Part shown: positions 1-12,754 of the stretch, piece after piece
How the letters are laid out: each line of letters starts with the position of its first letter
Position numbering within the stretch: the first letter of the stretch is position 1
From: an uncultured Lachnospiraceae bacterium
GTDB lineage: Bacteria > Bacillota > Clostridia > Lachnospirales > Lachnospiraceae
Direction: 5' to 3'
Assembly (NCBI GenBank): GCA_964386235.1
Contig: CAYLSH010000058.1
Location: 1-12,754 of the forward strand
DNA: 12,754 nt
Made by a program: the position numbers and the translations under genes
The notes under the pieces: generated by a model
Told to the model about the DNA's origin: nothing
Database searches by the model: none
The model's input: the letters and a program-made list of their open reading frames with translations, nothing else

Positions 1-36
1 TACGTAAGATAATACGTAAGATAATACGCAAGATGA
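1..36. repeat. Three direct 12-bp repeats (TACGTAAGATAA, TACGTAAGATAA, TACGCAAGATGA) abutting the window edge; the array may continue upstream
   Basis: Read directly: positions 1-12 and 13-24 are identical, 25-36 differs at 2 positions. Each unit contains the palindrome TACGTA. The 12-bp periodicity suggests a protein-binding iteron or operator. Confidence 0.55.
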
Positions 37-61
37 TGTGAAAAGTTATTGGAGGTATCTT

Positions 62-181
62 ATGGGAGATTATAAACCACCTTTACAATTACAAATGAGA
101 TATTGTCGTATGTATCATCCATCTCAGAGAAGATTGGTCGTATTTCAACTATCAGCAATTTGGAATCGAAACCGCATTTGA
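62..181 (+). CDS. Hypothetical small basic peptide, 39 aa (MGDYKPPLQLQMRYCRMYHPSQRRLVVFQLSAIWNRNRI)
   Basis: ATG at 62 lies 6 nt after a GGAGG Shine-Dalgarno (51-55). Open frame runs to TGA at 179-181. Too short for the ORF track. No recognisable family, so it could be spurious. Confidence 0.2.
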   Translation: MGDYKPPLQLQMRYCRMYHPSQRRLVVFQLSAIWNRNRI

Positions 182-238
182 CAAGCCTAATAGTAGGAAC
201 CAGAGATATGTTAGAGAATAATAGAAGTTAAAAGAATG

Positions 239-261
239 GTTGCCGACGGTCCACCGGCAAC
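239..261. other. Perfect 7-bp stem hairpin GTTGCCG-N9-CGGCAAC
   Basis: Reverse-complementary arms read directly. No U-tract follows, so it is not a canonical intrinsic terminator. Possible RNA structure or protein-binding palindrome. Confidence 0.3.
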
Positions 262-360
262 AATCAACCGATTTTGCGAATCATAAAAGATATCGTATCT
301 GATAAGCCGGACATGAATTCAGTACCCGGCCGAAAATGCAAAATGAACTGCCCTCGGAAA

Positions 361-389
361 CCTTAACAGGCTCATATTTGCTGTTAAGG
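361..389. other. Perfect 9-bp stem hairpin CCTTAACAG-N11-CTGTTAAGG
   Basis: Reverse-complementary arms read directly. An A-rich stretch follows rather than a U-tract. Possible leader or 3' structure of an upstream transcript. Confidence 0.3.
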
Positions 390-449
390 GAAACAAGGAA
401 AACACCATCTTTATCATTTTTCGTTGTGCTGTCTGCAGTTTAGTCATGA

Positions 450-479
450 TTGACAGAAGATATTAGGATTTGCTATAAT
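450..479 (+). promoter_or_regulatory. Sigma-A type promoter: -35 TTGACA (450-455), 18-nt spacer, extended -10 TGcTATAAT (471-479)
   Basis: Consensus hexamers with a TG extended -10 motif, read directly. Upstream region is AT-rich. The predicted transcription start near 486 is about 55 nt before the ATG at 540. Confidence 0.5.
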
Positions 480-539
480 GTGCTAGGTAATTTTGACAAA
501 TTATTACATATTTTTTATCAACAAATTGACGAGGGGGAC

Positions 540-1832
540 ATGGATATGCCTATAATGAATGTTATAAAAAATGATGCATTTGGAGATATGCTTTGTTCCA
601 AAATACCATGTGAGGACTTTAACATTGGCTCGCAGCTGATTGTAGCGGAATATGAAGAAGCCCTTTTTATGAAGGATGGAATCATAGAAGAAGTATTTGG
701 TCCCGGTAAATATACGTTGACAACGGATAATTATCCGTTTTTGACCAAAATGATGTCGAAATTTTTGACGGGTGGTGTGAGTGCTTATAGTTGTAAAGTT
801 TACTTTATCAATAAATCACATCATCTGGAATTGAAGTGGGGAACCGGTACACCGGTTCGAATCATAGATCCTGTCTGGAATATAGAAGTACATGTACAGG
901 CAAGAGGAACGTACTCTGCTGTTGTCAAGGATGGAAAGAAGTTCTTTTTAAAGATGGTAGGTGCAAATGTAGCAGCCGCAGAAGGAGATTTAGTCAAGAA
1001 TTTCAGAACGGCATTTATTCAGAACATTACGGATGCACTGGCAGAATATCTTACTACTTCAAGAGATGAAGTTCTGGTTGTCTGCAATCGAAAGAAAGCA
1101 TTGGCAGATGACCTGAAACAGAGTTTGAATACCATTCTGGATGAATATGGTATGGAACTGGTTAATTTTTATATAGAAAATATAGAAATTCCGGAAAATG
1201 ACGCCTGCATGCAGAGAATCCGCGAATTGCGTATTCTTCGTCAGGAAAAAATGTTTGAAAGAGAACAAAATATTGCAGATGAAAGAATGCAGTTTGGATT
1301 GCGGCAGGAAGAAGCGGATGCGGCAAGATATGTTTCCGGCCAGCACGCACAAGCTGATTATGAAAGAATGCATATTCGTGATCAGGATGGAAATAATGGA
1401 TGGGCAAGGCAGGAAGTTGCTGAGATTTTGAAAAAAGCAGCGGACAATGAAGGCAACGGCTCGGAAATGATGAACATAGGAGTGGGACTCGGAATGGGTT
1501 CGGCAATGGGTGGCGCAGTACGGAATATGGCAGATATGTTTCTTGCAAACAATGAAACGACCAATACCGGAAAGGCTCCTGATACGCAAGTGTGTCCTCA
1601 CTGTAATGCAGTTGTTCCTGCAGGCATGAAGTTCTGTGGCGGATGTGGAAAACCATTACAACAACCTAAAAAAACATGTGCAAATTGCGGAGCGGAGTTG
1701 ATTGCAGGCATGAAATTCTGTGGTGAGTGCGGAACTCCGGTTGCACCGCAGAAAATAGTATGCAAAAACTGTGGGGCGGAAATAGCCGCTGAGATGAAGT
1801 TTTGCGGTGAATGCGGACAAAAAGTTGAATAG
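540..1832 (+). CDS. SPFH/Band-7 domain protein (YdjI-like, Band_7_1 type) with three C-terminal tandem zinc ribbons
   Basis: The ORF track gives 450..1832, but 450 is a TTG codon that coincides with the -35 hexamer. A start at ATG 540 (or ATG 546) just after GAGGGGG (531-537) is more credible. The N-terminal ~300 aa carry the F-x-N...WGT...P core and a charged helical region typical of SPFH proteins, assigned from memory of the Band_7_1 family. The C-terminus carries 3 units of C-x2-C-x9-MKFCGxCG. Confidence 0.8.
   Translation: MDMPIMNVIKNDAFGDMLCSKIPCEDFNIGSQLIVAEYEEALFMKDGIIEEVFGPGKYTLTTDNYPFLTKMMSKFLTGGVSAYSCKVYFINKSHHLELKWGTGTPVRIIDPVWNIEVHVQARGTYSAVVKDGKKFFLKMVGANVAAAEGDLVKNFRTAFIQNITDALAEYLTTSRDEVLVVCNRKKALADDLKQSLNTILDEYGMELVNFYIENIEIPENDACMQRIRELRILRQEKMFEREQNIADERMQFGLRQEEADAARYVSGQHAQADYERMHIRDQDGNNGWARQEVAEILKKAADNEGNGSEMMNIGVGLGMGSAMGGAVRNMADMFLANNETTNTGKAPDTQVCPHCNAVVPAGMKFCGGCGKPLQQPKKTCANCGAELIAGMKFCGECGTPVAPQKIVCKNCGAEIAAEMKFCGECGQKVE
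1593..1832 (+). repeat. Three tandem 84-bp coding repeats (last truncated to 72 bp), each encoding one zinc-ribbon unit
   Basis: Units start at 1593, 1677 and 1761. Each encodes C(P/A/K)(H/N)C(N/G)A(V/E)...GMKFCG(G/E)CG... Confidence 0.7.
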
Positions 1833-1843
1833 GGGGCGTACAA

Positions 1844-2524
1844 ATGAATAGTAAGATGTATAAAGGGCTGATTGCCCTGATTGCGATGGTTGCGGCAAAT
1901 GTGGGCGTATTTCTTCTGGTAAAACATTTTACACCATTATTTTGGATTAATTACAGTTTTGCCATGATTGCCTGCATACTTACGATTTTTATTAATATTT
2001 TTTCGCTGGATAAGGAAAAACCAATCTTTGGATATACACTGGCAGCGGTTTCCTGGGCATATTTAGCGGTGGAACTGGTTGCTGCGTTTGTATTTTCTAA
2101 ACTTCTTCCGTTCTTTCTTCTGCCGGCCTTTTTGATTCAGCTGTTTATTCTGGCAGCATTCGGAATCTGCTATCTGCAGGTGAAGATGGTAAATGAATCG
2201 ATTAAAGACAGACAGGCAGTTCGCGGAAATGAGATTTTGAACTTTAAGTATATCCTGGAAAAAATGAAAGAGGTACAACGTAAGATTGCTTATTCGGAAT
2301 CGTATCGAAAGACAGTGGATCATGCATATGATTCACTTGCAAGCGGACAGACCAAAAGTAATGATATGGCTGTAGAAGTTGAAAAGGCAATATTGGGTAA
2401 GATCAGTGATCTGGATACAGCAGTGGAGAAACATGCAGAGGAAGAAATTCTGGCTGTTTGCGGAGAAATTGAAAAGTTGTCGGAAGAACGGAAACGGATT
2501 TTGACATTAAGACAGAATTTTTAA
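1844..2524 (+). CDS. Integral membrane protein (4 predicted TM helices) with a C-terminal cytoplasmic coiled-coil region
   Basis: ATG at 1844 lies 7 nt after GGGGG (1832-1836), only 11 nt after the upstream stop. Four hydrophobic ~20-aa segments are followed by ~110 aa of charged heptad-like sequence. Confidence 0.75.
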   Translation: MNSKMYKGLIALIAMVAANVGVFLLVKHFTPLFWINYSFAMIACILTIFINIFSLDKEKPIFGYTLAAVSWAYLAVELVAAFVFSKLLPFFLLPAFLIQLFILAAFGICYLQVKMVNESIKDRQAVRGNEILNFKYILEKMKEVQRKIAYSESYRKTVDHAYDSLASGQTKSNDMAVEVEKAILGKISDLDTAVEKHAEEEILAVCGEIEKLSEERKRILTLRQNF

Positions 2525-2561
2525 ATACGAAGAACATTTTCATGTTGGAAAGAGGTAAGAA

Positions 2562-3239
2562 ATGAACAATCAGAGACCGTGGTATTATTCCTGGGGAGTT
2601 ATTATTTTAGCATTTTTATTTTTCTGGCCGGTAGGTATCGTGCTTTTGGTAATGAGAAACCGTAATACCAATAAAGTTTCAAGACAGTCTTTATTTACAA
2701 ATACGAATAAGAAAAAATATATAACAATTGGAGTAATCCTGATTGTTATAGGTCTTACGACTATATCGGATAGTGCTTTGATGGGACTTTTCCTGATAAT
2801 CGGAGGAATTATACTGATTATTTATTCCGAAAAATTGGTTAAGGATGCGGCAAGAAGAAAGAAATATATGGATCTGATCGTAAATAATCAGGTATATAGT
2901 CTGGAAAAAATTGCAAGTATTTGTAATGTACAGTATTCTATCGTGCTAAAGGAATTGAATCAGTTGATTTCCTTTGGCGTACTGAAAGGTGCATACATAG
3001 ATGAAGGCAAAAGACAGGTTATGATAGCAGGCACGCCGAACACATCCGGCATCATTCCAATGACACAAACGCTGGAAGATGGCCTTGCTTCCTTCACACA
3101 GACTGTTACCGGCGCAGCTGCTGTACAGCAGCCAAAGATGGTTGCTGCTGTATGTCCCGGATGTGGTGCTAAGATGTCCATTCCGGAAGGCGCGGTTGTG
3201 GAGTGTGAATATTGTGCAGCAACGGTATCAGCCCAGTAA
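2562..3239 (+). CDS. Membrane protein with 2-3 N-terminal TM helices, a winged-helix-like segment and a C-terminal CxxC...CxxC zinc ribbon
   Basis: ATG at 2562 lies 6 nt after AAGAGG (2550-2555). Hydrophobic segments sit at about aa 10-30 and 54-88. The segment YSLEKIASICNVQYSIVLKELNQLISFGVLKGAYIDEGKRQVM looks like a helix-turn-helix with a beta wing. The C-terminus reads CPGCGAKMSIPEGAVVECEYC. Confidence 0.75.
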   Translation: MNNQRPWYYSWGVIILAFLFFWPVGIVLLVMRNRNTNKVSRQSLFTNTNKKKYITIGVILIVIGLTTISDSALMGLFLIIGGIILIIYSEKLVKDAARRKKYMDLIVNNQVYSLEKIASICNVQYSIVLKELNQLISFGVLKGAYIDEGKRQVMIAGTPNTSGIIPMTQTLEDGLASFTQTVTGAAAVQQPKMVAAVCPGCGAKMSIPEGAVVECEYCAATVSAQ

Positions 3240-3272
3240 ATAACAACATTATTATTACAATGGGAGACAGAC

Positions 3273-3737
3273 ATGGATATATTTAATAAGGCAAAAGAAT
3301 CTATTTCTATTGCGGGAAAGGGATTTACACAGAAAGCAAATGATGTTTCCGGTATTGCGAAAGTAACCATGAAGATCCGGGAAGAGGAAAAAGAAATACA
3401 GGAAATTTACAAAAATGTTGGGGAACAGTTATGTATGTTACATCCCGAGGACATGACGAAATTATTTCCCGAACAGGCATATCACCTGGAGAATCTTAGA
3501 AAGCAGTTGGAAAAGGATAAACAGGAACTGGCGATTTATAAGGGAATGTGTATCTGTCCCAATTGTGGTTCGGAGCAGGAAAAAGACGTTTTGTGTTGTA
3601 CCGAATGCGGTATGAATATGGAAGATGCACGGCGCATGCAGTTACAACAGCAGGAAGTAGTATTGTGCCAAAATTGTGGAACGGCATTGGCAGCAGGATC
3701 AAAATTCTGTATGAATTGTGGGCAAAAAGTAGATTAG
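3273..3737 (+). CDS. Small coiled-coil protein with a C-terminal double zinc ribbon
   Basis: ATG at 3273 lies 5 nt after GGGAGA (3262-3267). The N-terminal ~100 aa are charged and helical. The C-terminus reads CPNCG...CCTECG and CQNCG...SKFCMNCGQKV, the same FC-x-CG zinc-ribbon signature as in the first gene. Confidence 0.75.
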   Translation: MDIFNKAKESISIAGKGFTQKANDVSGIAKVTMKIREEEKEIQEIYKNVGEQLCMLHPEDMTKLFPEQAYHLENLRKQLEKDKQELAIYKGMCICPNCGSEQEKDVLCCTECGMNMEDARRMQLQQQEVVLCQNCGTALAAGSKFCMNCGQKVD

Positions 3738-3889: not shown

Positions 3890-3918
3890 TTGACGATTGA
3901 CCCTATATAGCGTATAAT
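3890..3918 (+). promoter_or_regulatory. Sigma-A type promoter: TTGACG (3890-3895), 17-nt spacer, TATAAT (3913-3918), with an upstream A-tract
   Basis: Near-consensus hexamers with exact 17-nt spacing, preceded by an AAAAAACAAAGAAAAATTTT UP-like element. It predicts a leader of about 120 nt before the ATG at 4048. Confidence 0.5.
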
Positions 3919-4047: not shown

Positions 4048-5670
4048 ATGAAACGAAGTGTTTTTCACAGTATATGCTATGGGACATGGATTGTGATTGC
4101 CGTTTTGTTTTTCTTTCTTTTTGATTACATCAAGGTAAATGTTTCCGGCGGAGAGGCAAAGAAGGATTATGAGGTACTGGTGGACTATGATGTGGAAACC
4201 GGGCTGGATCCGGCGGCACCGACGGGAATACGCAAGATATACGATTTTACCTTAAATGGGATAGAAGAATCGTATTGCGAACTGGTTTTTTACTGTATCC
4301 ATCAGAATGCGGAAGTATATCTGGATGGAGAACGCATTTATGATATGCAGATGCCGGAAGGCGGCATTGCCGGCGGATCTCCGGGATATATGTGGAATGC
4401 CCTTTCCTTTTCGGAAGAGGACAACGGGAAGGAACTGCGGATAGAGATTGTGCCGGTATACAGTTCTTCCAATGACATCACGCCCATTTTGTATTTTGGC
4501 AACCGGTATGACATCGCAAGGGTTATTATCATGGATTCTTTATGGAATCTGCTCTTTAGCGTGATTGTAATTGCGCTGGGCCTTGTATACATATGTTTCG
4601 TGCTGTTTAATAATCGAAAAACAAAGGTGGAAAACAGTTTGTCCATGCTGGGCTTCTTTGCGATTCAGCTGGGACTGTGGAAAATTTCGGAGTCTGAGGC
4701 GGTCAATTTCCTCATTTCCGGACATCCGGCGTTTTCACAGGTTACCTTTGTATCCTTGATGTTTATGGGAATATCCATGATATTGTACATAAAGGAACTG
4801 TACAGTACACATGACAAATGGATCTGGTATGTGCCGTGTGTATTAGGATTTACCAATGTGATCCTCACACTTTTGTTACAATTTGCAGGCGTGGCGGATA
4901 TGCGTCAGATGCTGCCGGTTACGCATGGTGTGATTGGCGTGGGGATTGTGATTACCATCGTGATGACGGTTTATGAAGTGTTCTGCGTCGGCTGGACAAA
5001 GAAACTGAAATTGAATCTGGGATGTCTGGCGGGCTGCTTTGTGGGCGCCGGCATAGATATGCTTTTTTACTATGTCTCAAAGGGAAGTGCACCTTCTGTT
5101 TTTTCCATGGTGGGATTTTTGGTGTACATTCTTGTGCTGGGTATTGCGTCCATGCAGGATATTAAGGAATTGATGCGGTATGGGATCCGGGCCAAAAAAT
5201 ATGCGCAACTGGCATACCACGATCAGTTAACGGGCTTATATAACCGCACCGCATACGAAGAATTTACGAAAAGTCAGGAATTTGATCCGGAAGACTGCGT
5301 TGTTTTGATCATGGATTTGAACAATTTAAAAAGCTGCAATGATGTATTGGGACATGACAAAGGAGATATTTACATCAGGGAAGCGGCGGAAGCCATCAAA
5401 GAATCCTTCGGGAACGTGGGCAATTGCTACCGAATGGGTGGTGATGAATTCTATGTGTTGGCAAAAAGCGAGTCGGCGGATGAGTGTAAAAGAAGGATTG
5501 AACAGTTGCAGAAGCGCGTAGCTGCGTGCAAGGCAGTGGGCGAGGACTTTAAAATGGGGATCGCCTGTGGTTTCCAATTTTTTGACAGGGATATGGATCG
5601 CGATATCAGCGAGACAGTCAGACGCGCGGATAAGGCGATGTATCAGGATAAATTTGCGATGAAATCGTAG
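4048..5670 (+). CDS. Membrane diguanylate cyclase with 7TMR-DISM architecture: signal anchor, ~150-aa extracellular domain, 7 TM helices, C-terminal GGDEF domain
   Basis: ATG lies 7 nt after AGGGGGA. Seven hydrophobic segments span aa ~162-373. The GGDEF domain runs from YHDQLTGLYNR through MDLNNLKSCND..GHDKGD and YRMGGDEF to ADKAMYQDK. No RxxD I-site precedes GGDEF. Confidence 0.9.
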   Translation: MKRSVFHSICYGTWIVIAVLFFFLFDYIKVNVSGGEAKKDYEVLVDYDVETGLDPAAPTGIRKIYDFTLNGIEESYCELVFYCIHQNAEVYLDGERIYDMQMPEGGIAGGSPGYMWNALSFSEEDNGKELRIEIVPVYSSSNDITPILYFGNRYDIARVIIMDSLWNLLFSVIVIALGLVYICFVLFNNRKTKVENSLSMLGFFAIQLGLWKISESEAVNFLISGHPAFSQVTFVSLMFMGISMILYIKELYSTHDKWIWYVPCVLGFTNVILTLLLQFAGVADMRQMLPVTHGVIGVGIVITIVMTVYEVFCVGWTKKLKLNLGCLAGCFVGAGIDMLFYYVSKGSAPSVFSMVGFLVYILVLGIASMQDIKELMRYGIRAKKYAQLAYHDQLTGLYNRTAYEEFTKSQEFDPEDCVVLIMDLNNLKSCNDVLGHDKGDIYIREAAEAIKESFGNVGNCYRMGGDEFYVLAKSESADECKRRIEQLQKRVAACKAVGEDFKMGIACGFQFFDRDMDRDISETVRRADKAMYQDKFAMKS

Positions 5671-5718
5671 GGGATCAGACAGAGGGAATTAGTCAGAGAG
5701 AATTAGGGGGACTGAAGA

Positions 5719-7341
5719 ATGAAAAAGGACCTTTTGCATGGTGTCTGTTATGCGGCGTGGATAGGAATTGCCATCTTATTCTTTTGCCATTTAAAGTATA
5801 CCAATGTGGATGTTTATGGCGGGCAAGCCAAAGAAAATTATGAAATACTGACGGAATATGACATGGAAACCATGCAGGATTCAACGGCTCCGACGGGAAT
5901 ACGCAAGATCTATGATATTACTTTGGACGGGATTAAAGAATCGTATTGCGAACTGGTTTTTTTCACCATTCATCAGACTTCCAGGGTGTATTTGGATGAC
6001 ACCTGTATTTACAGTATGCAGATGAAGGATGGGGGAGTTATGGGCAGATCACCCGGCTATACCTGGAATGCCCTTTCTTTTTCAGAAAAAGATAACGGTA
6101 AAAATCTGCGGATAGAGATTACACCGGTATACAGTTCTTCCGATGACATCGTGCCCGTTTTATATTTTGGAAACCGGTATGATATTGCAAGGGATGTCAT
6201 CAAGGGGTCCTTGTTGGATCTGTTATTTAGTATAGCCTCAATAGTAGTGGGCATGGTGTACATCATTTTTGTGGCATTTAACAACCGTAAAACAAAAACA
6301 GAAAGCAGTCTTGCCATGCTGGGATTTCTGGCAATTCAACTGGGATTGTGGAGATTTTCCGATTCTGAGGCGGTTAACTTTCTGATTCCGGGCAGACCGG
6401 AGTTTTCCCAGATTACCTTTTTGTCCCTCATGTTTATCGCAACAGCAATGGGACTGCATATAAAACAACTGTATAGTACACGCAAAAAATGGATCTGGTA
6501 TATATCCATTGTGTTGGGGTTTGCCAATATCGTAATCTCGTTGTTGCTGCAGTGCTTGGGCGTGGCCGATATGCGCCAGATGCTGCCGTTTACGCATGTG
6601 GTGATGGCAATCTGTATAGTGGTTACCATTGTGATGACGATTTACGAAATACGTTATGTGGGATGGACGAAAAAATTAAAATTACATGTTGGATGTCTTA
6701 CGGGTTGCTTTGCGGGTGCCATAGTTGATATGGGACTCTATTACGCGACTAGTGGAGTGGCTCCCTCTACATTTACCATGCTGGGATTTATGGTTTATAC
6801 CATGGTGCTGGGAACGGCTTCGATGCATGAAGTTAAGGAACTGATGCAATTTGGTATCCGGGCAAAACGCTACGAAAAACTGGCATATTACGATCAGCTG
6901 ACAGGTTTATACAACCGTACCGCATACGAAGAATTTACCAAAAACCACGATTTTAACCCGGAAAACTGTGTCGTTCTGATCATGGACCTAAACAATTTGA
7001 AAAGTTGTAATGACACCTTTGGACACGACAAAGGGGATGTATATATCAGGGAAGCGGCAAAAACAATCGGCGAGTTGTTCGGAAATGCCGGCAACTGCTA
7101 CCGGATGGGCGGCGATGAATTCTATGTATTGGCAAAAAATGAAACAGCGGATGATCTGAAAGACAGAATCAAACAGTTGCAGGAACATATGGCGGCATGC
7201 AAAACTGTGGATGAAAACTTTGAAATGGGGATTGCCTGCGGTTTCCGGTTTTTTGACAAGAACATGGACCGTGATATCGGCGAGACTGTCAGACGCGCGG
7301 ATAAGGCAATGTATCAGAATAAATTTGCGATGAAGTCCTAA
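5719..7341 (+). CDS. Paralogous membrane diguanylate cyclase (7TMR-DISM plus GGDEF), tandem duplicate of the previous gene
   Basis: Same length (540 aa) and colinear along the whole protein, at roughly 65-70% amino-acid identity by eye. Identical nucleotide runs of 20-25 nt are shared, for example CCGACGGGAATACGCAAGAT. The same AGGGGGAC ribosome-binding context is present. The 48-nt intergenic gap has no terminator. Confidence 0.9.
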   Translation: MKKDLLHGVCYAAWIGIAILFFCHLKYTNVDVYGGQAKENYEILTEYDMETMQDSTAPTGIRKIYDITLDGIKESYCELVFFTIHQTSRVYLDDTCIYSMQMKDGGVMGRSPGYTWNALSFSEKDNGKNLRIEITPVYSSSDDIVPVLYFGNRYDIARDVIKGSLLDLLFSIASIVVGMVYIIFVAFNNRKTKTESSLAMLGFLAIQLGLWRFSDSEAVNFLIPGRPEFSQITFLSLMFIATAMGLHIKQLYSTRKKWIWYISIVLGFANIVISLLLQCLGVADMRQMLPFTHVVMAICIVVTIVMTIYEIRYVGWTKKLKLHVGCLTGCFAGAIVDMGLYYATSGVAPSTFTMLGFMVYTMVLGTASMHEVKELMQFGIRAKRYEKLAYYDQLTGLYNRTAYEEFTKNHDFNPENCVVLIMDLNNLKSCNDTFGHDKGDVYIREAAKTIGELFGNAGNCYRMGGDEFYVLAKNETADDLKDRIKQLQEHMAACKTVDENFEMGIACGFRFFDKNMDRDIGETVRRADKAMYQNKFAMKS

Positions 7342-7604
7342 GACGGCATCCGGAATCGGTGTGAAGGAGAATATGTGTATGGAGCGTTGGCTGATTGCGA
7401 CTGTAAACGTGATAGTACTGGTAGGGGGTGGCTTTTTGCTGTATCGCCACTTTGTTACAAACAGGATTATGGATAAGGACACAATTCTGTTTCCGCCGGA
7501 CGGATGGCAAAAATTATGCGGAACTCGAACTGGAGGATGGCAGAAAATGCCGGATTGAGATCGAATACCTTGAGGAAAGTCCCACGATCAATGGCATGTA
7601 TACA

Positions 7605-7636
7605 TTGACATTTTATACCGGGGGGGGGGGTAAAAT
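7605..7636 (+). promoter_or_regulatory. Candidate phase-variable promoter: perfect -35 TTGACA (7605-7610), 20-nt spacer containing the G11 tract, -10 TAAAAT (7631-7636)
   Basis: Hexamers read directly. The spacer (TTTTATACC plus G11) is 3 nt longer than the 17-nt optimum. Loss of 3 G would give a near-ideal promoter 86 bp upstream of the giant secreted protein gene. Confidence 0.35.
7620..7630. repeat. Homopolymeric G11 tract
   Basis: Read directly: g at 7620 plus gggggggggg at 7621-7630. This is very unusual in a genome that otherwise appears to be about 40-45% GC. It is a candidate slipped-strand mispairing site, or a homopolymer sequencing error. Confidence 0.9.
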
Positions 7637-7721
7637 GCAAAGTAATAGCGTGGGGCAGATGCCAACGCACAGAAAATAAGCCAAATGAGCTTAAATATTG
7701 TAGAAGAGGAAAGGTAAAAGG

Positions 7722-7799
7722 ATGAGAAAGACGAAACAATTTCTAGCATTTGCACTTGCCATCATGATGTTCATGACCAATACGGTGAGTGCTTCGGCA
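7722..7799 (+). other. Predicted Sec signal peptide (26 aa) of the giant protein
   Basis: Basic n-region MRKTKQ, hydrophobic core FLAFALAIMMFM, c-region TNTVSASA with an A-x-A-like cleavage context before TGTG. Confidence 0.6.
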
Positions 7800-10700
7800 A
7801 CCGGAACCGGCGTCACGCTTGGGCAAAGCGGTCAGAATGTGATTGCGACAACCGGAGAAACGGGAGTTCCGGAAACGGGTGAACCGGAGACGGGAACACC
7901 GGAAATGGGTGAACCGGAGACGGGGACAGCGGAAACAGGTGAAGTGGAAACAGGAGTTCCGGAAACGGGAACACCGGAAGCAACAGAACCAACCACCGAG
8001 GAGGCGACCGCTAAAGAGGCGACCACCGAGGAAAGTACGGAGGGGATGCTTGCAGCGGATGTGCTGAAGGATACCACGGTGGACTTTAGTACGACACAGA
8101 CGGGGGACTATGTGATCCCGGTCAGTGACGGCACTGCGACGGTTTATGTAAAGACACTTGCGGATGCGGTGGATTATGTGGATAAGATCGGCAATAACAG
8201 CACTGCATATACGATTAATTATAATCTCAAAGGTAAGACATACTCGATTGGAGAAAATGATCTGGTATCCGCTGAGAAAAGAAATATTACGCTGATTACG
8301 GATGAGATTTCACTTGATGGCAATGTAAATATCGCTATTCAGGCGTCCGCTATTTCCAGTGTGAAGGGGGATGAACTTACTATTCAGAGTGGGCTATATT
8401 CCACAAAACTCAGTGGCACAACGGATAATAAATGTACAATAGAAGGCGCTATTAGTATTGGGGAGGGTGCCTCTGTTACATTGGAGAATGTCATTCTGGG
8501 CACTGCAGATGAAGGAGTCGACATCACTGATTTAGGGACAGGCAATCATTCCATAACCATTATGGACGCTACGATTCAAAATTTGAATTCCATTTCTATT
8601 TCGGGTGCACTTGCACTTGTGGATATTACGGTAGCGGATGGAAAACAACTACCTATAGATTTGACTGATACTTATGCAAGTTCGGCTGATTATGAGGTGG
8701 GCAAAACGAAAACCAGGACGGTGTTTCAGGTAAGCGGAAGCCTGACGGTGGGAAGCGGCAATTCTACAAATGAAGAAAATGTCGCACCGATTAAAATTAA
8801 GAAAAGCGCCTCTGTAGACAATGATGGGTATTACACTGTCGCACCCGTTCATGGGGACCTCCTTGCCGTATACACGGGGACGGATCCGGAACACTCCGGA
8901 TGGACAGATCTTTCCCATTACGAGATAACAGGGATGACCAATCCGGAGAATTTTTCTATTGTGCCGGAGAAAACAGGGGAAGGCATCTACAATCTGATTT
9001 TGCAGGAAAAGAGTATTGTATCCCTTACGGAAGAGCCGGACGCTACGAATCCTACCGTAAAATATTATGGTAATATGGAGGCTTTAAAGACTTATCTGAC
9101 AAGCGATGCAGCAGAAAACAAGTCCTATCTGATTACCTTATTGGATGATGTGGAATCATTGGGGACGGAAACCTTGGACTTTTCTTCTTCAAAGGCGGCT
9201 TGTATTGATCTGAAAATGAATGAGCATACGATTTCCTTTTCAGATCAATTGGCGATTGTGGTGGATAAGGTAATCGGGGATGATAAGGCTCAGTTTATTG
9301 GAACCGGTAGCGGTAATTCACTCAGCATTGGATCAAGAACGGAGAGTAAAACTTACTGGAAAAAGGTTGCACTGAGTGGCATGGAATATCTTTCCATAAA
9401 AGGTAGTGTAACAATTGATAATGCCCTTACATGGGATGTGGACGAGGTCACTATAGATAAAGATATTGAAATCAATAGTCTGACGGCTGATAAAGTGGTG
9501 TATAAGAGTGAGTATACTACTCTGCGCATTAACACGGCATTGAATACGGATTACCTGGGATTTTACGACGATGAAGCCGGCAATTCGACCGCTCTTCATG
9601 CAGCGCCGGGGGCAACTTTAAACATCAAAGATGTTCAGTTTAGTGATAACACATCACTGACGATCTGTCTGGAATATAAGGATGGTACGCCCATTGCGGG
9701 GAATGCACTTACGATCACCGGAGATGTGACTTGTGGAACCCAAAACACACCGATTACGATCGTAAAGAGCAAACGCGCTCCTAGGACAGAGAATAATGTG
9801 GTAGTTAAGGATGACTTCGGCAATACGGTTTATGATGAAACCGAAGAACATTTTGCAAATGGGGAAACAATCGCAACCGTAACGAATATGGATGTGTCGG
9901 CTGATTGTTTTAAGATAAACGGAAAAACTGCGAGAGTGGAACGAAGCGGGGACAAAATGAAAGCCATTCTGCCCACCGTAGAAGTAACCGGCCTGAGATC
10001 GGGATTTACAAAGGGATATGCCAGCCTGAATGATGCCGTGAAGAATCTGGCGGCGGACACAAATAGTACTGAGGATTCTTATCAGTTTACGCTTCTTGCG
10101 GATGAAAAACTGACGGCGAATATGACACTTCCGTCATTTGTAACAGAAGCGACTTTCGTTACATTGGACGAAGCGGGTGTCTATGAGCAGCATAGCCTGG
10201 ATCTGAACGGAAAGACCCTGTCCTCTGCCGGCCTGATAAAGGTTACGGGGGGTGCCGGCATGTGCAGCACATCGGCAACAAGCGGTAAACTCGTAACCAC
10301 ATCCGGCGATTATAAGACTTTGCAACTCACACCGGGTAAAGTTAAGGGTGTAAGATCCCCCATGTTGGATAATGTGGCGGTAAGTGTTAAAAATGGTTCT
10401 GTCGTTTTTGACATAGAAAGCGGATGTGAGAAAAATGAAGAACACATACTGAACGCGACCTTTGATGTCAAGGAGTTTACTGTTTGGACGGAAAGTATCT
10501 GGAAGATTGAAAATCTAAATTCCAAGACCAAGGGCTATATTAAGACAGAAGCATACAACTTAAACGGTAGTATGACGGTTGATCAGTTGTATATTCAGGT
10601 GCCCAAAGGGGCAATGGCAGATATGTCGAGATTACATGGCAACCTGAATGTCAACACGATGACAATGCAGAATGCATACATGGTTAGTGACACTGCATCC

Positions 10701-12754
10701 AATGTTAGAGTGGGAACCTTAAAGGAAACCGAGTCCTCCCTTTCTTTGGAAGGCAATCTGCAACTGGGAAATGTGACATTAAACAATTCCGAACTGTATA
10801 TGGGATATTATACGGATTTTGAGGGTGAAAAAGAAAATGGGTATACTACGAATGCAGTGATTGGTACCCTTACTCTTTCCGGTGGCAGTGAATTCTGGTG
10901 CTATGGAAAATGTGAAGCGGAAAAGATTGAGTCCACTGCTTCACAGATTGCAACGTATTTCGGATTGATTGATATTGAGAATCTGACTGTTAATTCTGCC
11001 TATGCAGGTGAAAGTCAGAATAAATACACATTGTATAACATGGGTGATTCCGACTATGAAGGCGGCATCCGGATCTCCGGCACCCTGAACATGAAAGCCG
11101 GTACTTTATACAATGATGCCTACGGCAAGATGGAGATCGGCAAAGCAATTGTAAAAGATGTGGTCAATGGAGAATACGCGCAGATAATCTGCAATGATTT
11201 TACCAATACGGGCAAACTGACTCTGGAAAAAGAGAGTAAACTTCTGCTCAACAAAACGGCAGCATTAAACAATGTAAAAGAAGCAAAATGCGGGAATGAT
11301 GACTATGCAGCCATCGGACGCAGTGCGGATGCAACCGTTACGTTAAAAGGCAGCTTTACAACGGAATCTGAGGAAGACCGCATTTATGCCTTTGTAACGG
11401 ATAAATATAAGGATGCCGTTACAACGGATACTTTTGAAACGATTGTATTTCCGGCAAAGAATACGGCAGTTAATGGTGAAATAGATACTTTGAATGCAGG
11501 GGATACTCTTTTTAAGACTGAGATCAGGACTTTCCCGTCAGAGAGTATTCAGGTATTGCCGCAGTGGCTATCGAATGTAACAAACGAAAGAATAGCCAAT
11601 CCAAATGATGCCGTATATCAGCAGGACAAAGATCTTAAAATAAGCGGCAACTATATCACGGTGTATGTGAATAAGCCGGATGGAAAGGGAGAAACTAAAC
11701 TTCAGGCATTTTCCCAATGGAAGGATGCGGTTGCGTATATCAATACGCTGAATAATATGGAAGCTTCCTACACGATCGGTATCTCCAATCATGTGGATAC
11801 CATGGGAAAACTGGAACTTCCGACCAAAGCAGCCGGCATTACGGTGCGTAGTGACGTTGAGGACGGAGAAGGGGAAGAGACTTCAAGAAAGCCGGTTCTT
11901 CTCTACTACCGGGACGATATTGCACTGAATACGGACACAACCTTTGACAGTATTTATTTTGTACCGTATAAAGCGGGCACAACGAAAACAAAATATGTCG
12001 GTTCCATCGATACAAAAGGAAAGAGATTGGAACTGAAGGCAATCGGATCGCTGGCCTATTGTGAAGATTTAGACCCGGAACAGTTGGGCGAGGAGGACAT
12101 TGCTCCTTTCAAGGCGATCAAAGGAACCAAAACCACGGAAGTATATATAAACGACACTGATTTGATGATTACGGATAAGATGACCGGCATTCATCAGCTT
12201 ACACTTTTAAATGATGCATCTTTAAGTGCGCGCGGTGGTTTGTCCGTGGACGTTGTATACAGTGATCCGGGAGAAGATCATAATGAACTGTATGTACTCG
12301 GAGAAAAGAATGTTCTGGAAATAAAAGAGCAGCTCGTGATGAAGGGTGGGACTTCTCTTGTAAGTGACGGAAGCATAAAAGTGAAGGACGTTGTCACAAA
12401 CGGTTCCGGAAACTCTATGGTGACCTTAAAAGAAAACAACATTCTGATCACCGGAAGGGTGTATGCTAAGACGGGTACACAGCGTGATAATACAATTCTT
12501 ATCGCCACGCGGGATAATGGAAATATACTTGCGAATGCCAAACTGGTATCTCCGACCTGGTTTAAAACAGGGGAGCTCGATGGAGAGGGTAACTTCGGGG
12601 AAAGCACTTATTCGGTATATAAAGATGGCGATATGCTTGTGCGTACTTCACACGGGGAAAATATTCTTCTTTCTGTGAAAAACGCAAGCAGTGTGGATAA
12701 AATCAACCAGTTTGAAACATTGCAGGAAGCCTTTTTAGAGATCGATCGCCTTGG
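7722..12754 (+). CDS. Giant secreted or cell-surface repeat protein (5' partial, more than 1677 aa): signal peptide, acidic ETGxP linker, beta-helix-like modular repeats
   Basis: ATG 7722 lies 11 nt after GAGGA (7706-7710). The frame stays open to the window end, and the absence of any stop-delimited + strand ORF in the track agrees. The N-terminus MRKTKQFLAFALAIMMFMTNTVSASA is a Sec signal peptide. Low-complexity T/E/P-rich region. The body is rich in T/S/N/G/I/V with strand-like periodic motifs such as GNVNIAIQASAIS, CTIEGAISIGEGASVTLENVILG and SITIMDATIQNLNSISISG. Confidence 0.85.
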   Translation, partial: MRKTKQFLAFALAIMMFMTNTVSASATGTGVTLGQSGQNVIATTGETGVPETGEPETGTPEMGEPETGTAETGEVETGVPETGTPEATEPTTEEATAKEATTEESTEGMLAADVLKDTTVDFSTTQTGDYVIPVSDGTATVYVKTLADAVDYVDKIGNNSTAYTINYNLKGKTYSIGENDLVSAEKRNITLITDEISLDGNVNIAIQASAISSVKGDELTIQSGLYSTKLSGTTDNKCTIEGAISIGEGASVTLENVILGTADEGVDITDLGTGNHSITIMDATIQNLNSISISGALALVDITVADGKQLPIDLTDTYASSADYEVGKTKTRTVFQVSGSLTVGSGNSTNEENVAPIKIKKSASVDNDGYYTVAPVHGDLLAVYTGTDPEHSGWTDLSHYEITGMTNPENFSIVPEKTGEGIYNLILQEKSIVSLTEEPDATNPTVKYYGNMEALKTYLTSDAAENKSYLITLLDDVESLGTETLDFSSSKAACIDLKMNEHTISFSDQLAIVVDKVIGDDKAQFIGTGSGNSLSIGSRTESKTYWKKVALSGMEYLSIKGSVTIDNALTWDVDEVTIDKDIEINSLTADKVVYKSEYTTLRINTALNTDYLGFYDDEAGNSTALHAAPGATLNIKDVQFSDNTSLTICLEYKDGTPIAGNALTITGDVTCGTQNTPITIVKSKRAPRTENNVVVKDDFGNTVYDETEEHFANGETIATVTNMDVSADCFKINGKTARVERSGDKMKAILPTVEVTGLRSGFTKGYASLNDAVKNLAADTNSTEDSYQFTLLADEKLTANMTLPSFVTEATFVTLDEAGVYEQHSLDLNGKTLSSAGLIKVTGGAGMCSTSATSGKLVTTSGDYKTLQLTPGKVKGVRSPMLDNVAVSVKNGSVVFDIESGCEKNEEHILNATFDVKEFTVWTESIWKIENLNSKTKGYIKTEAYNLNGSMTVDQLYIQVPKGAMADMSRLHGNLNVNTMTMQNAYMVSDTASNVRVGTLKETESSLSLEGNLQLGNVTLNNSELYMGYYTDFEGEKENGYTTNAVIGTLTLSGGSEFWCYGKCEAEKIESTASQIATYFGLIDIENLTVNSAYAGESQNKYTLYNMGDSDYEGGIRISGTLNMKAGTLYNDAYGKMEIGKAIVKDVVNGEYAQIICNDFTNTGKLTLEKESKLLLNKTAALNNVKEAKCGNDDYAAIGRSADATVTLKGSFTTESEEDRIYAFVTDKYKDAVTTDTFETIVFPAKNTAVNGEIDTLNAGDTLFKTEIRTFPSESIQVLPQWLSNVTNERIANPNDAVYQQDKDLKISGNYITVYVNKPDGKGETKLQAFSQWKDAVAYINTLNNMEASYTIGISNHVDTMGKLELPTKAAGITVRSDVEDGEGEETSRKPVLLYYRDDIALNTDTTFDSIYFVPYKAGTTKTKYVGSIDTKGKRLELKAIGSLAYCEDLDPEQLGEEDIAPFKAIKGTKTTEVYINDTDLMITDKMTGIHQLTLLNDASLSARGGLSVDVVYSDPGEDHNELYVLGEKNVLEIKEQLVMKGGTSLVSDGSIKVKDVVTNGSGNSMVTLKENNILITGRVYAKTGTQRDNTILIATRDNGNILANAKLVSPTWFKTGELDGEGNFGESTYSVYKDGDMLVRTSHGENILLSVKNASSVDKINQFETLQEAFLEIDRL
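7857..7976 (+). repeat. Eight tandem 15-bp coding repeats encoding ETG(V/E/T)(P/A/V) pentapeptides (acidic linker)
   Basis: Read directly (ccggaaacgggtgaa, ccggagacgggaaca, and so on). It produces low-complexity frame artefacts: a + strand arginine-rich ORF (7843..8067) and a - strand S/P/V-rich ORF (7832..8077). Confidence 0.7.

Follow-up and report, generated by a model that had tools for sequence, protein, structure and literature searches.

A run of consecutive G residues in the spacer of a putative promoter, upstream of a gene for a giant secreted protein, differs in length among populations of an uncultured Lachnospiraceae bacterium that are otherwise identical or nearly identical in sequence at this locus. 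The run resides on a 12,754-nucleotide (nt) stretch of DNA (hereafter called the window), which represents the forward strand of contig CAYLSH010000058.1 from assembly GCA_964386235.1. We propose, with a probability of roughly 0.7, that this tract is a contingency locus, that is, a hypermutable simple-sequence repeat in the spacer of a sigma-A-type promoter, and that slippage in the tract tunes the expression of a giant protein that is secreted, probably associated with the surface, and beta-solenoid-like. This proposal has withstood all of the checks that can be made on sequence data.

The candidate promoter is oriented on the forward strand and begins with a perfect -35 hexamer (TTGACA, 6/6, positions 7605 to 7610). 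This is followed by a fixed spacer part of 9 nt read from the sequence (TTTTATACC, 7611 to 7619), by a tract of 11 G residues (G11, 7620 to 7630) that brings the spacer to 20 nt, and by a -10 hexamer (TAAAAT, 5/6, 7631 to 7636). The ATG of the giant gene lies at 7722 (ATGA, 7722-7725), at a distance of 86 nt from the end of the -10 hexamer. All of these positions and distances had been given in a preliminary description of this DNA and were confirmed on the sequence. Promoter geometry would place the transcription start about 7 nt past the -10 hexamer, which yields a predicted 5' untranslated region (UTR) of ~79 nt (7643 to 7721, forward strand) that includes a purine-rich ribosome-binding site (RBS) on the same strand (GAAGAGGAAAGG, 7703-7714). 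The arrangement TTGACA-(9 nt + Gn)-TAAAAT places the tract within the promoter spacer, as expected at the sequence level for repeat-mediated transcriptional phase variation, and the tract is long enough for slippage, for which about 7-8 nt or more are needed.

The G11 run had been described as conspicuous, and the composition of the window agrees with this assessment. The run is the only G/C homopolymer of at least 7 nt in the window, and a first-order Markov model predicts 0.015 runs of at least 11 G residues per window. Similarly, the pattern TTGACA-N16-21-TAWAAT occurs twice in the window, compared with 0.07 occurrences expected by chance. A generic promoter scan made no call at the window site because the spacer range that it allows (16-18 nt) excludes a spacer of 20 nt. 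The same scan calls TTGACA-18-TAAAAT on a contig carrying G9 and TTGACA-17-TAAAAT on a contig carrying G8, with a score of 11/12 in each case.

Contigs carrying this locus (locus 1) were sought by means of an identical GGDEF protein or by four variants of the product of a small upstream open reading frame (ORF) of 59 amino acids. Four accession series of the Sequence Read Archive (SRA) contributed contigs, from 27 runs in total, and the tract is spanned in 25 of these, giving 26 sequences when the window is included. Among the runs identified are SRR17221322/26/27/28/33/38/41/43, SRR19576293/95/99/305/309/310/311/314, SRR21733471 and SRR22923215-256. The -35 hexamer is unchanged in all 26, and the tract ranges from G7 to G12. 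G9 (18-nt spacer) is the mode with 16 sequences, followed by G10 (19-nt spacer) with three, whereas G7 (16-nt spacer), G8 (17-nt spacer) and G11 (20-nt spacer, window included) are each represented by two and G12 (21-nt spacer) by one. Thus, 20 of the 26 populations carry a spacer of 16-18 nt, while the remaining 6, among them the window, carry one of 19-21 nt. G8 and G9 had been named beforehand as the alleles that would give spacers of 17 nt (the optimum) and 18 nt, respectively, and both of them exist.

The comparison of tract lengths across assemblies, which had been proposed along with the promoter itself, also reveals that the length changes are confined to the tract. Over ~73 kb of pairwise alignments no indel occurs outside the tract, 23 other homopolymers of at least 6 nt (up to A7/T7) are constant, and a projection of all 25 contigs onto the window leaves no gap except at the tract. 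Different lengths are found on the same or nearly the same backgrounds. For example, the window (G11) and contig L002 (G9) have identical states at all 38 single-nucleotide polymorphisms (SNPs) across positions 4379-7835, contigs L006 (G9) and L009 (G7) exhibit 0 mismatches over 6171 nt, and contig L063 (G8) is one SNP away from contigs L064 and L065 (G9).

The same promoter design recurs elsewhere, which supports the view that a spacer homopolymer changes in length in this species. A gene version designated P0055, which comes from the same SRA runs as the species of the window, is 98% identical to the kinase gene (coaX) that precedes the giant gene of contig L071. Downstream of coaX, at what we call locus 2, the sequence reads TTGACA-TTTGCCGTC-Gn-TAAAAT, where Gn is G9 seven times, G8 twice and an interrupted G7A once, and the indels in the locus-2 contigs are again confined to the tract. 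The giant gene of L071 (P0007) is itself preceded by a terminator hairpin and then by TTGACA-TTTGCCGTC-G8-TAAAAT, and a third homologue, on contig L069 (P0005, same SRA series), has TTGCAA-TTTGCTTTC-G9-TATAAT. The fixed spacer part measures 9 nt in L071, locus 2 and L069 as well. Two further homologues, L072 (P0008; TTGCAT-18-TATAAT) and L070 (P0006; TTGTTT-17-TATAAT), carry interrupted purine runs at the tract position (GGGAGGAGA and GAGAAAGG, respectively).

In an alignment of five homologous upstream regions, the TTG of the locus-1 -35 hexamer aligns with the -35 hexamers of the four other giant-gene promoters, and TTG and the -10 pattern TA.AAT are kept in all five, while the flanks have diverged to ~62% column identity. 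The hexamers thus behave as would be expected of the genuine promoter of this gene family. A pure G run that starts 9 nt past the -35 hexamer and touches the -10 hexamer is maintained in three diverged members and degenerate in two. Moreover, allele lengths concentrate on spacings of 17-18 nt at every locus.

These comparisons bear on the explanation that the tract is a neutral hotspot, i.e. that the G run is unstable without having a regulatory role, and that the hexamers are idle or that expression is driven by read-through from the GGDEF genes upstream. Instability is a property of long G runs irrespective of function, and a strong promoter-like site ahead of the GGDEF genes (TTGACG-17-TATAAT, 11/12, 3890 to 3918, forward strand), together with the finding of no convincing terminator between 7341 and 7722, permits such read-through. 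We nevertheless consider this explanation unlikely. G/C runs of at least 7 nt are absent from the rest of the window, and L069 and L071 have no such run in 15-16 kb other than the promoter tract; only one G/C run of at least 8 nt was found across 450 kb of related Lachnospiraceae DNA. A neutral hotspot would also have to arise as a pure tract at the identical position in three diverged giant-gene promoters, next to -35 and -10 hexamers that are kept despite the divergence of their flanks, and with allele lengths that concentrate on the 17-18-nt spacings. Furthermore, the L071 promoter follows a terminator hairpin and so must be that giant gene's own.

An alternative explanation with less to recommend it is that tract length is a slow strain marker, fixed in each lineage and not switching on ecological time scales. 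Only a single consensus allele is visible per sample, and some haplotype groups do share a length: L007 and L008, which come from different accession series, have the same haplotype and both carry G10, and all members of the group L066/L067/L068 carry G9. The L007/L008 pair shows that alleles are heritable and reproducible. However, on a neighbour-joining (NJ) tree the tract lengths need 9 changes by Fitch parsimony, compared with 9.8 when the labels are shuffled, and length is therefore without phylogenetic signal. Differences of 1-2 G residues occur between contigs that mismatch at 0-3 positions over 3-6 kb, and six alleles are present in a population that diverges at only ~1.2% of sites. 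We consider a slow marker improbable given these data. Instead, lengths both above and below the mode occur on several haplotype backgrounds, as would result from recurrent expansion and contraction. The number of independent length changes is at least 5, since six alleles exist, and may be as high as about 9; the tract changes at ~200-360 times the per-site substitution count. Contig L059 stops within the tract, after 8 G residues, as a de Bruijn assembly of a mixed population would, although this is only a hint.

It is also conceivable that the true length is uniform and that the differences are sequencing or assembly artefacts, produced by polymerase or base-calling errors in short-read de Bruijn assemblies. 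G tracts are difficult to sequence and prone to slippage in vitro (PMC9187656), the data consist throughout of short-read contigs from Logan or ENA, and the break in L059 falls inside the tract. In contrast, the tract lengths lie 2-5 nt apart (G7, G9 and G12), which is far beyond the size of consensus errors, and the other homopolymers are all constant. The unusual G10 allele is repeated in the two samples of the same haplotype from different accession series. Both loci were recovered in 7 samples, in which locus 1 has G7, G9, G10 or G11 and locus 2 has G9 or G7A, so that a library with G9 at locus 2 can have G7, G10 or G11 at the other locus. This discordance within libraries indicates that the loci vary independently and rules out a library-wide homopolymer bias. 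Finally, the G7A allele of locus 2 is a base substitution. An origin of the variation in artefacts is thus very improbable. The interrupted allele (GGGGGGGA, L075:2367-2374, run SRR22923251) leaves the spacer at 17 nt and would represent a form of the switch that is naturally 'locked'.

The possibility that the tract acts on translation, by setting the frame of the small upstream ORF so that G7 or G10 couples it to the ATG of the giant gene, is hardly tenable. Its frame arithmetic is correct, because the frame-0 reading ends at 7725 with G7 or G10, in a TGA that overlaps the ATG, at 7679 with G8 or G11, and at a TAA within the -10 hexamer with G9 or G12, and the frame-0 peptide (DGKNYAELELEDGRKCRIEIEYLEESPTINGMYTLTFY) looks protein-like; yet in every sample the small ORF that was called uses a different frame and terminates at 7558, 62 nt before the tract, the frame-0 ORF begins inside that other ORF with neither an ATG nor an RBS of its own, a search with the conceptually repaired 82-amino-acid protein returned the 59-amino-acid cluster only and no longer homologue, the homologous tracts in L069 and L071 are non-coding (located after a stop codon or a terminator), and the coupling lengths are carried by a minority of 5/26 sequences. 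The tract does not lie inside an expressed reading frame, where intragenic (translational) phase variation, of the type known from the Bifidobacterium breve pilus and from Neisseria lgtG, would have it. In this respect the preliminary description stands only in part: its frame arithmetic (G10 or G7 reaches the TGA over the ATG) holds, whereas its disrupted ORF and the coupling are not supported, given that the small ORF ends upstream of the tract.

The small ORF itself (7379 to 7558, forward strand, 59 amino acids) has a strong RBS (GAAGGAG) and an N-terminal transmembrane helix. It is represented by four protein variants, has no homologues beyond this species, and forms part of the context rather than of the switch. 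Beyond its end, the frame-0 continuation at 7488-7633 (DGKNYAELELEDGRKCRIEIEYLEESPTINGMYTLTFYTGGG) resembles protein and, with the modal G9 allele, ends at the TAA in the -10 hexamer. This continuation may be the remnant of a decayed gene or a chance occurrence.

Several observations weigh against the proposal that the tract is a promoter-spacer contingency locus. The compared sequences are all consensus contigs from short-read metagenomes, and errors of one G residue in either direction at G11 or G12 are possible through the slippage in vitro mentioned above. The modal allele gives a spacer of 18 nt and not the optimal 17 nt. The promoter-like site at 3890-3918 could provide for transcription of the giant gene by read-through that is independent of the tract. 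In addition, the SNPs require 245 Fitch changes at 151 sites on the NJ tree, with up to 6 per site. This homoplasy is indicative of recombination among strains or of chimeric or mixed-strain consensus contigs, and either of these would inflate the count of independent tract events.

If the tract is a contingency locus, slipped-strand mispairing at replication would add or remove G residues, and each step would shift the distance between the -35 and -10 hexamers by 1 base within the range of 16-21 nt. A change in the spacer would in turn change promoter strength, with 17-18 nt giving an active sigma-A promoter and 19-21 nt giving progressively weaker ones. G8 and G9 would then be the expressed states, which would dominate in most host populations, whereas G10 to G12 would be low or off, and the G11 allele of the window would capture the locus in a low or off state. 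Because no terminator is present between the GGDEF operon and the giant gene, the switch could be a volume control above a baseline of read-through rather than a strict on/off device.

We infer from the sequences that TTGACA and TAAAAT form the active promoter of the giant gene and that slippage occurs at phase-variation rates within clones. Spacer length is expected to alter expression on the basis of the spacer rules for sigma-70-type promoters and of the porA precedent described below, and the giant protein is presumably exposed at the surface. Each of at least two giant-gene paralogues, and probably of three or more, would have a tract of its own, and their independent variation would lead to combinatorial surface phenotypes. 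A more far-reaching and still tentative version of this model envisions a multi-locus 'phasotype', in which three or more giant beta-solenoid surface proteins, each with its own poly-G rheostat, switch independently and host populations are dominated by different combinations. Since one copy is linked to two diguanylate cyclases, stochastic switching and signalling by cyclic di-GMP (c-di-GMP) might converge on the same adhesin.

Other regulatory elements were considered for this region and set aside. A c-di-GMP riboswitch controlling the adhesin (GEMM-I or GEMM-II, of the Clostridioides difficile type) was rejected, since Rfam yields no match up to E = 1 around positions 7340-7722, c-di-GMP riboswitches included, and the UTR measures only ~79 nt. 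An inverton was likewise rejected, as only 8-nt inverted repeats at chance level are present in 7300-7800 and as 26/26 contigs are collinear, with none inverted. A minus-strand promoter that would use the same tract (TTTGCA-17/18-TAAAAT, 9/12) is absent from L069, L071 and locus 2 and was taken to be a chance occurrence. An inverted repeat of 7-8 bp around the tract, (A)CATTTTA / TAAAATG(T), is not conserved in the paralogues and was dropped. A hairpin at 7226-7247 that resembles a terminator is coding sequence within the second GGDEF gene, and has a paralogous copy in the first at 5555-5576.

Two further sequence features flank the promoter hexamers. A perfect 10-bp palindrome (ATGTATACAT, 7598-7607) overlaps the upstream edge of the -35 hexamer at locus 1 and has a counterpart at locus 2 (TGTATACA, L077 about 2344-2351). 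Just downstream of the -10 hexamer, L069, L071 and locus 2 share a conserved motif (TGTATAAGT/TGTATAGGT). The palindrome and this motif could be binding sites for a regulator common to the paralogous promoters.

Our data also inform on how widely this system is distributed. A more distant relative (P0071, 88% kinase identity, from pig-gut and other assemblies) has coaX followed by purC and lacks a giant gene, which argues that the system is lineage-restricted. Among JGI metagenomes, the exact DNA pattern with a variable gap yielded 0 matches, and a profile of the family signal peptide retrieved L073 alone, which is a GC-rich false positive. The lone G/C run of at least 8 nt in the 450 kb of related DNA is a G10 run in Lachnospiraceae bacterium UBA7196 (L033:17435-17444, DKUU01000035.1). 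It lies 20 nt upstream of a -10 element of the sigma-28/SigD type (GCCGATAT) and ~95 nt upstream of a flagellin ORF, and may be a second instance in Lachnospiraceae of a homopolymer that precedes a surface-antigen gene.

The 5' part of the giant gene (7722 to 12754, forward strand) remains open to the end of the window over 1677 codons and encodes a signal peptide, in keeping with the initial assignment as a secreted protein of more than 1677 amino acids. The signal peptide is a typical one (MRKTKQFLAFALAIMMFMTNTVSASA) and is followed by an acidic linker rich in proline, glutamate and threonine (P/E/T) and then by all-beta, solenoid-like domains. An exhaustive phmmer search identified full-length homologues of 3385-4652 amino acids, which are 32-41% identical over residues ~660-1200 and whose signal peptides are nearly identical to that of the window protein. 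The N-terminal 600 amino acids have no match in GTDB genomes or in a word search of 5.8 billion proteins, and the protein has no match to Pfam families and no sequence match in the PDB.

Residues 656-1200 were modelled with AlphaFold together with five homologues, and the resulting model consists almost entirely of beta-strands, with a predicted local distance difference test (pLDDT) score of 87 and a predicted template modelling (pTM) score of 0.82. Foldseek returned no significant match to this model; the weak top matches are beta-helix passenger or adhesin domains of Hbp, EspP, IgA1 protease and Hap (best E = 0.016). Secretion of the giant protein is well supported, and, to judge by the predicted fold, a role as a surface adhesin is plausible. 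Products of repeat-mediated switches are typically surface or host-interaction determinants, although this trait does not strictly define such systems. No LPXTG motif or known anchor was found in the homologues. A C-terminal motif of ~45 amino acids (KVVTGKYLD...W...Y..G.D...G) that has no Pfam match is shared by P0005, P0006, P0008 and P0010, and could represent a domain for anchoring or sorting that has yet to be described.

Independent assemblies end at common points, among which are both ends of the window (position 1 and about 12730-12754). At locus 1 this occurs ~1669-1677 codons into the giant gene (about 12730-12754 in the window), and at locus 2 contigs L074-L083 break ~270 nt past the tract, inside the P/E/T-rich linker. 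These shared break points point to near-identical repeats among giant-gene paralogues that block assembly of the full genes.

Read from its start, the window has genes for an SPFH/zinc-ribbon protein, for two unknown proteins, for a zinc-ribbon protein and for two seven-transmembrane (7TM) GGDEF proteins, and then the 59-amino-acid membrane ORF and the giant gene. The first four genes (window 1-3737; L015-L043) form a cluster that is syntenic in many Lachnospiraceae genomes at an identity of 60-70% or below. Its members are an SPFH protein with multiple zinc ribbons, proteins of 226 and 225 amino acids that belong to no Pfam family, and a zinc-ribbon protein of 154 amino acids. In none of the syntenic Lachnospiraceae genomes examined were the GGDEF pair, the small ORF and the giant gene found. 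This low identity of the cluster, together with the lack of the region from the GGDEF genes to the giant gene in relatives, indicates that the species is an uncultured member of the Lachnospiraceae that has no close GTDB representative.

The two GGDEF genes (4048-5670 and 5719-7341) are tandem paralogues that encode 7TM diguanylate cyclases of 540 amino acids each, in which GGDEF domains were identified. The location of this pair beside the giant gene suggests a functional link of c-di-GMP signalling with the giant protein. At the other end of the window, TTGACA-18-TATAAT together with a TG motif (450-479) makes up a perfect extended promoter (12/12), which ends 1 base before the called start of the SPFH gene (480), implying either a leaderless mRNA or a mis-called SPFH start.

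Contingency loci made of repeats count as a hallmark of host-restricted pathogens with small genomes, Neisseria, Haemophilus, Campylobacter, Helicobacter and Mycoplasma among them, and DNA inversion is the documented route to phase variation in gut commensals and Clostridia. The locus described here suggests that homopolymer promoter switches also operate in abundant, uncultured gut Lachnospiraceae, where they would control the largest proteins that these bacteria secrete. If true, this would add a second layer of strain-level phenotypic heterogeneity to gut microbiomes, one that is much harder to detect. If the multi-locus version of the model is true as well, these bacteria would possess a Firmicute commensal counterpart of the Opa/Opc/PorA repertoires of Neisseria or of the Vlp repertoire of Mycoplasma. 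There is also a practical consequence, in that short-read assemblies break at tracts of this kind, which are routinely 'corrected' or passed over as if they were homopolymer errors.

Promoter-spacer repeats of other composition are known from the vlp genes of Mycoplasma hyorhinis and related mollicute lipoprotein promoters, which have poly-A in the spacer, and from Haemophilus influenzae hifA/hifB (cited in PMC5084427), with TA repeats separating the -35 from the -10 element. As in those systems, a multigene family of probable surface proteins would have its own promoter-spacer repeat in front of each gene, with independent switching and combinatorial variation. Unlike them, the repeat consists of G residues rather than A or TA, the host lineages are different, and vlp and hif have been demonstrated experimentally.

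The phase variation documented in Clostridia is DNA inversion (PMC11868660), and homopolymer switches had been said at the outset to be rarely described in Clostridia-like Firmicutes. Consistent with this, none of the papers available to our full-text search describes phase variation mediated by repeats for Lachnospiraceae or for related Clostridia. Invertible promoters of Clostridioides difficile and Bacteroides (flgB, cwpV, cmrRST, pdcB/pdcC; PMC11868660) resemble the present case in that they concern surface or c-di-GMP-linked phase variation in gut Firmicutes or Bacteroidetes, and the locus reported here adjoins two diguanylate cyclase genes. However, these systems rely on site-specific inversion, whereas the tract has no flanking inverted repeats and none of 26 contigs has an inverted orientation.

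A closer precedent with regard to habitat and repeat is the sortase-dependent pilus of Bifidobacterium breve, where G10-G12 tracts are heterogeneous in length and are selected in vivo (PMC9187656). The authors of that study mention further G tracts in promoter spacers without studying them (PMC9187656). Both hosts are gut commensals and both use a G tract, which in B. breve controls a surface adhesion structure. That species is an actinobacterium, and its tracts are intragenic and switch expression on or off by frameshift; the tract described here is non-coding and would act on transcription.

The most similar known system is the poly-G spacer of porA in Neisseria meningitidis, where 11 G residues give high expression, 10 a level 2.2-fold lower and 9 a level 13-fold lower (PMC3639595). 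Like porA, and like opc and fetA with their poly-C promoter tracts, the giant gene has a homopolymer tract inside the spacer that separates the -35 from the -10 element (9-11 nt in porA), its length varies among isolates, and several loci per genome vary independently. The porA tract serves an outer-surface protein, and single-base slippage grades its expression by spacing. The present host is, by contrast, a gut Lachnospiraceae bacterium of the Gram-positive type and not a proteobacterial pathogen, and the genes that would be regulated encode giant beta-solenoid-like proteins (3.4-4.7 thousand amino acids) of an uncharacterised family. In addition, the tract directly touches the -10 hexamer, the modal spacer is 18 nt and not 17 nt, and function is deduced here from sequence. 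The mechanism that we propose is therefore a textbook one of the porA/opc type, while what is new is the taxon in which it occurs, the family of genes concerned and the arrangement at multiple loci. What sets this system apart is the presence of its arrangement in multiple paralogues, combined with direct population-level evidence from public metagenomes.

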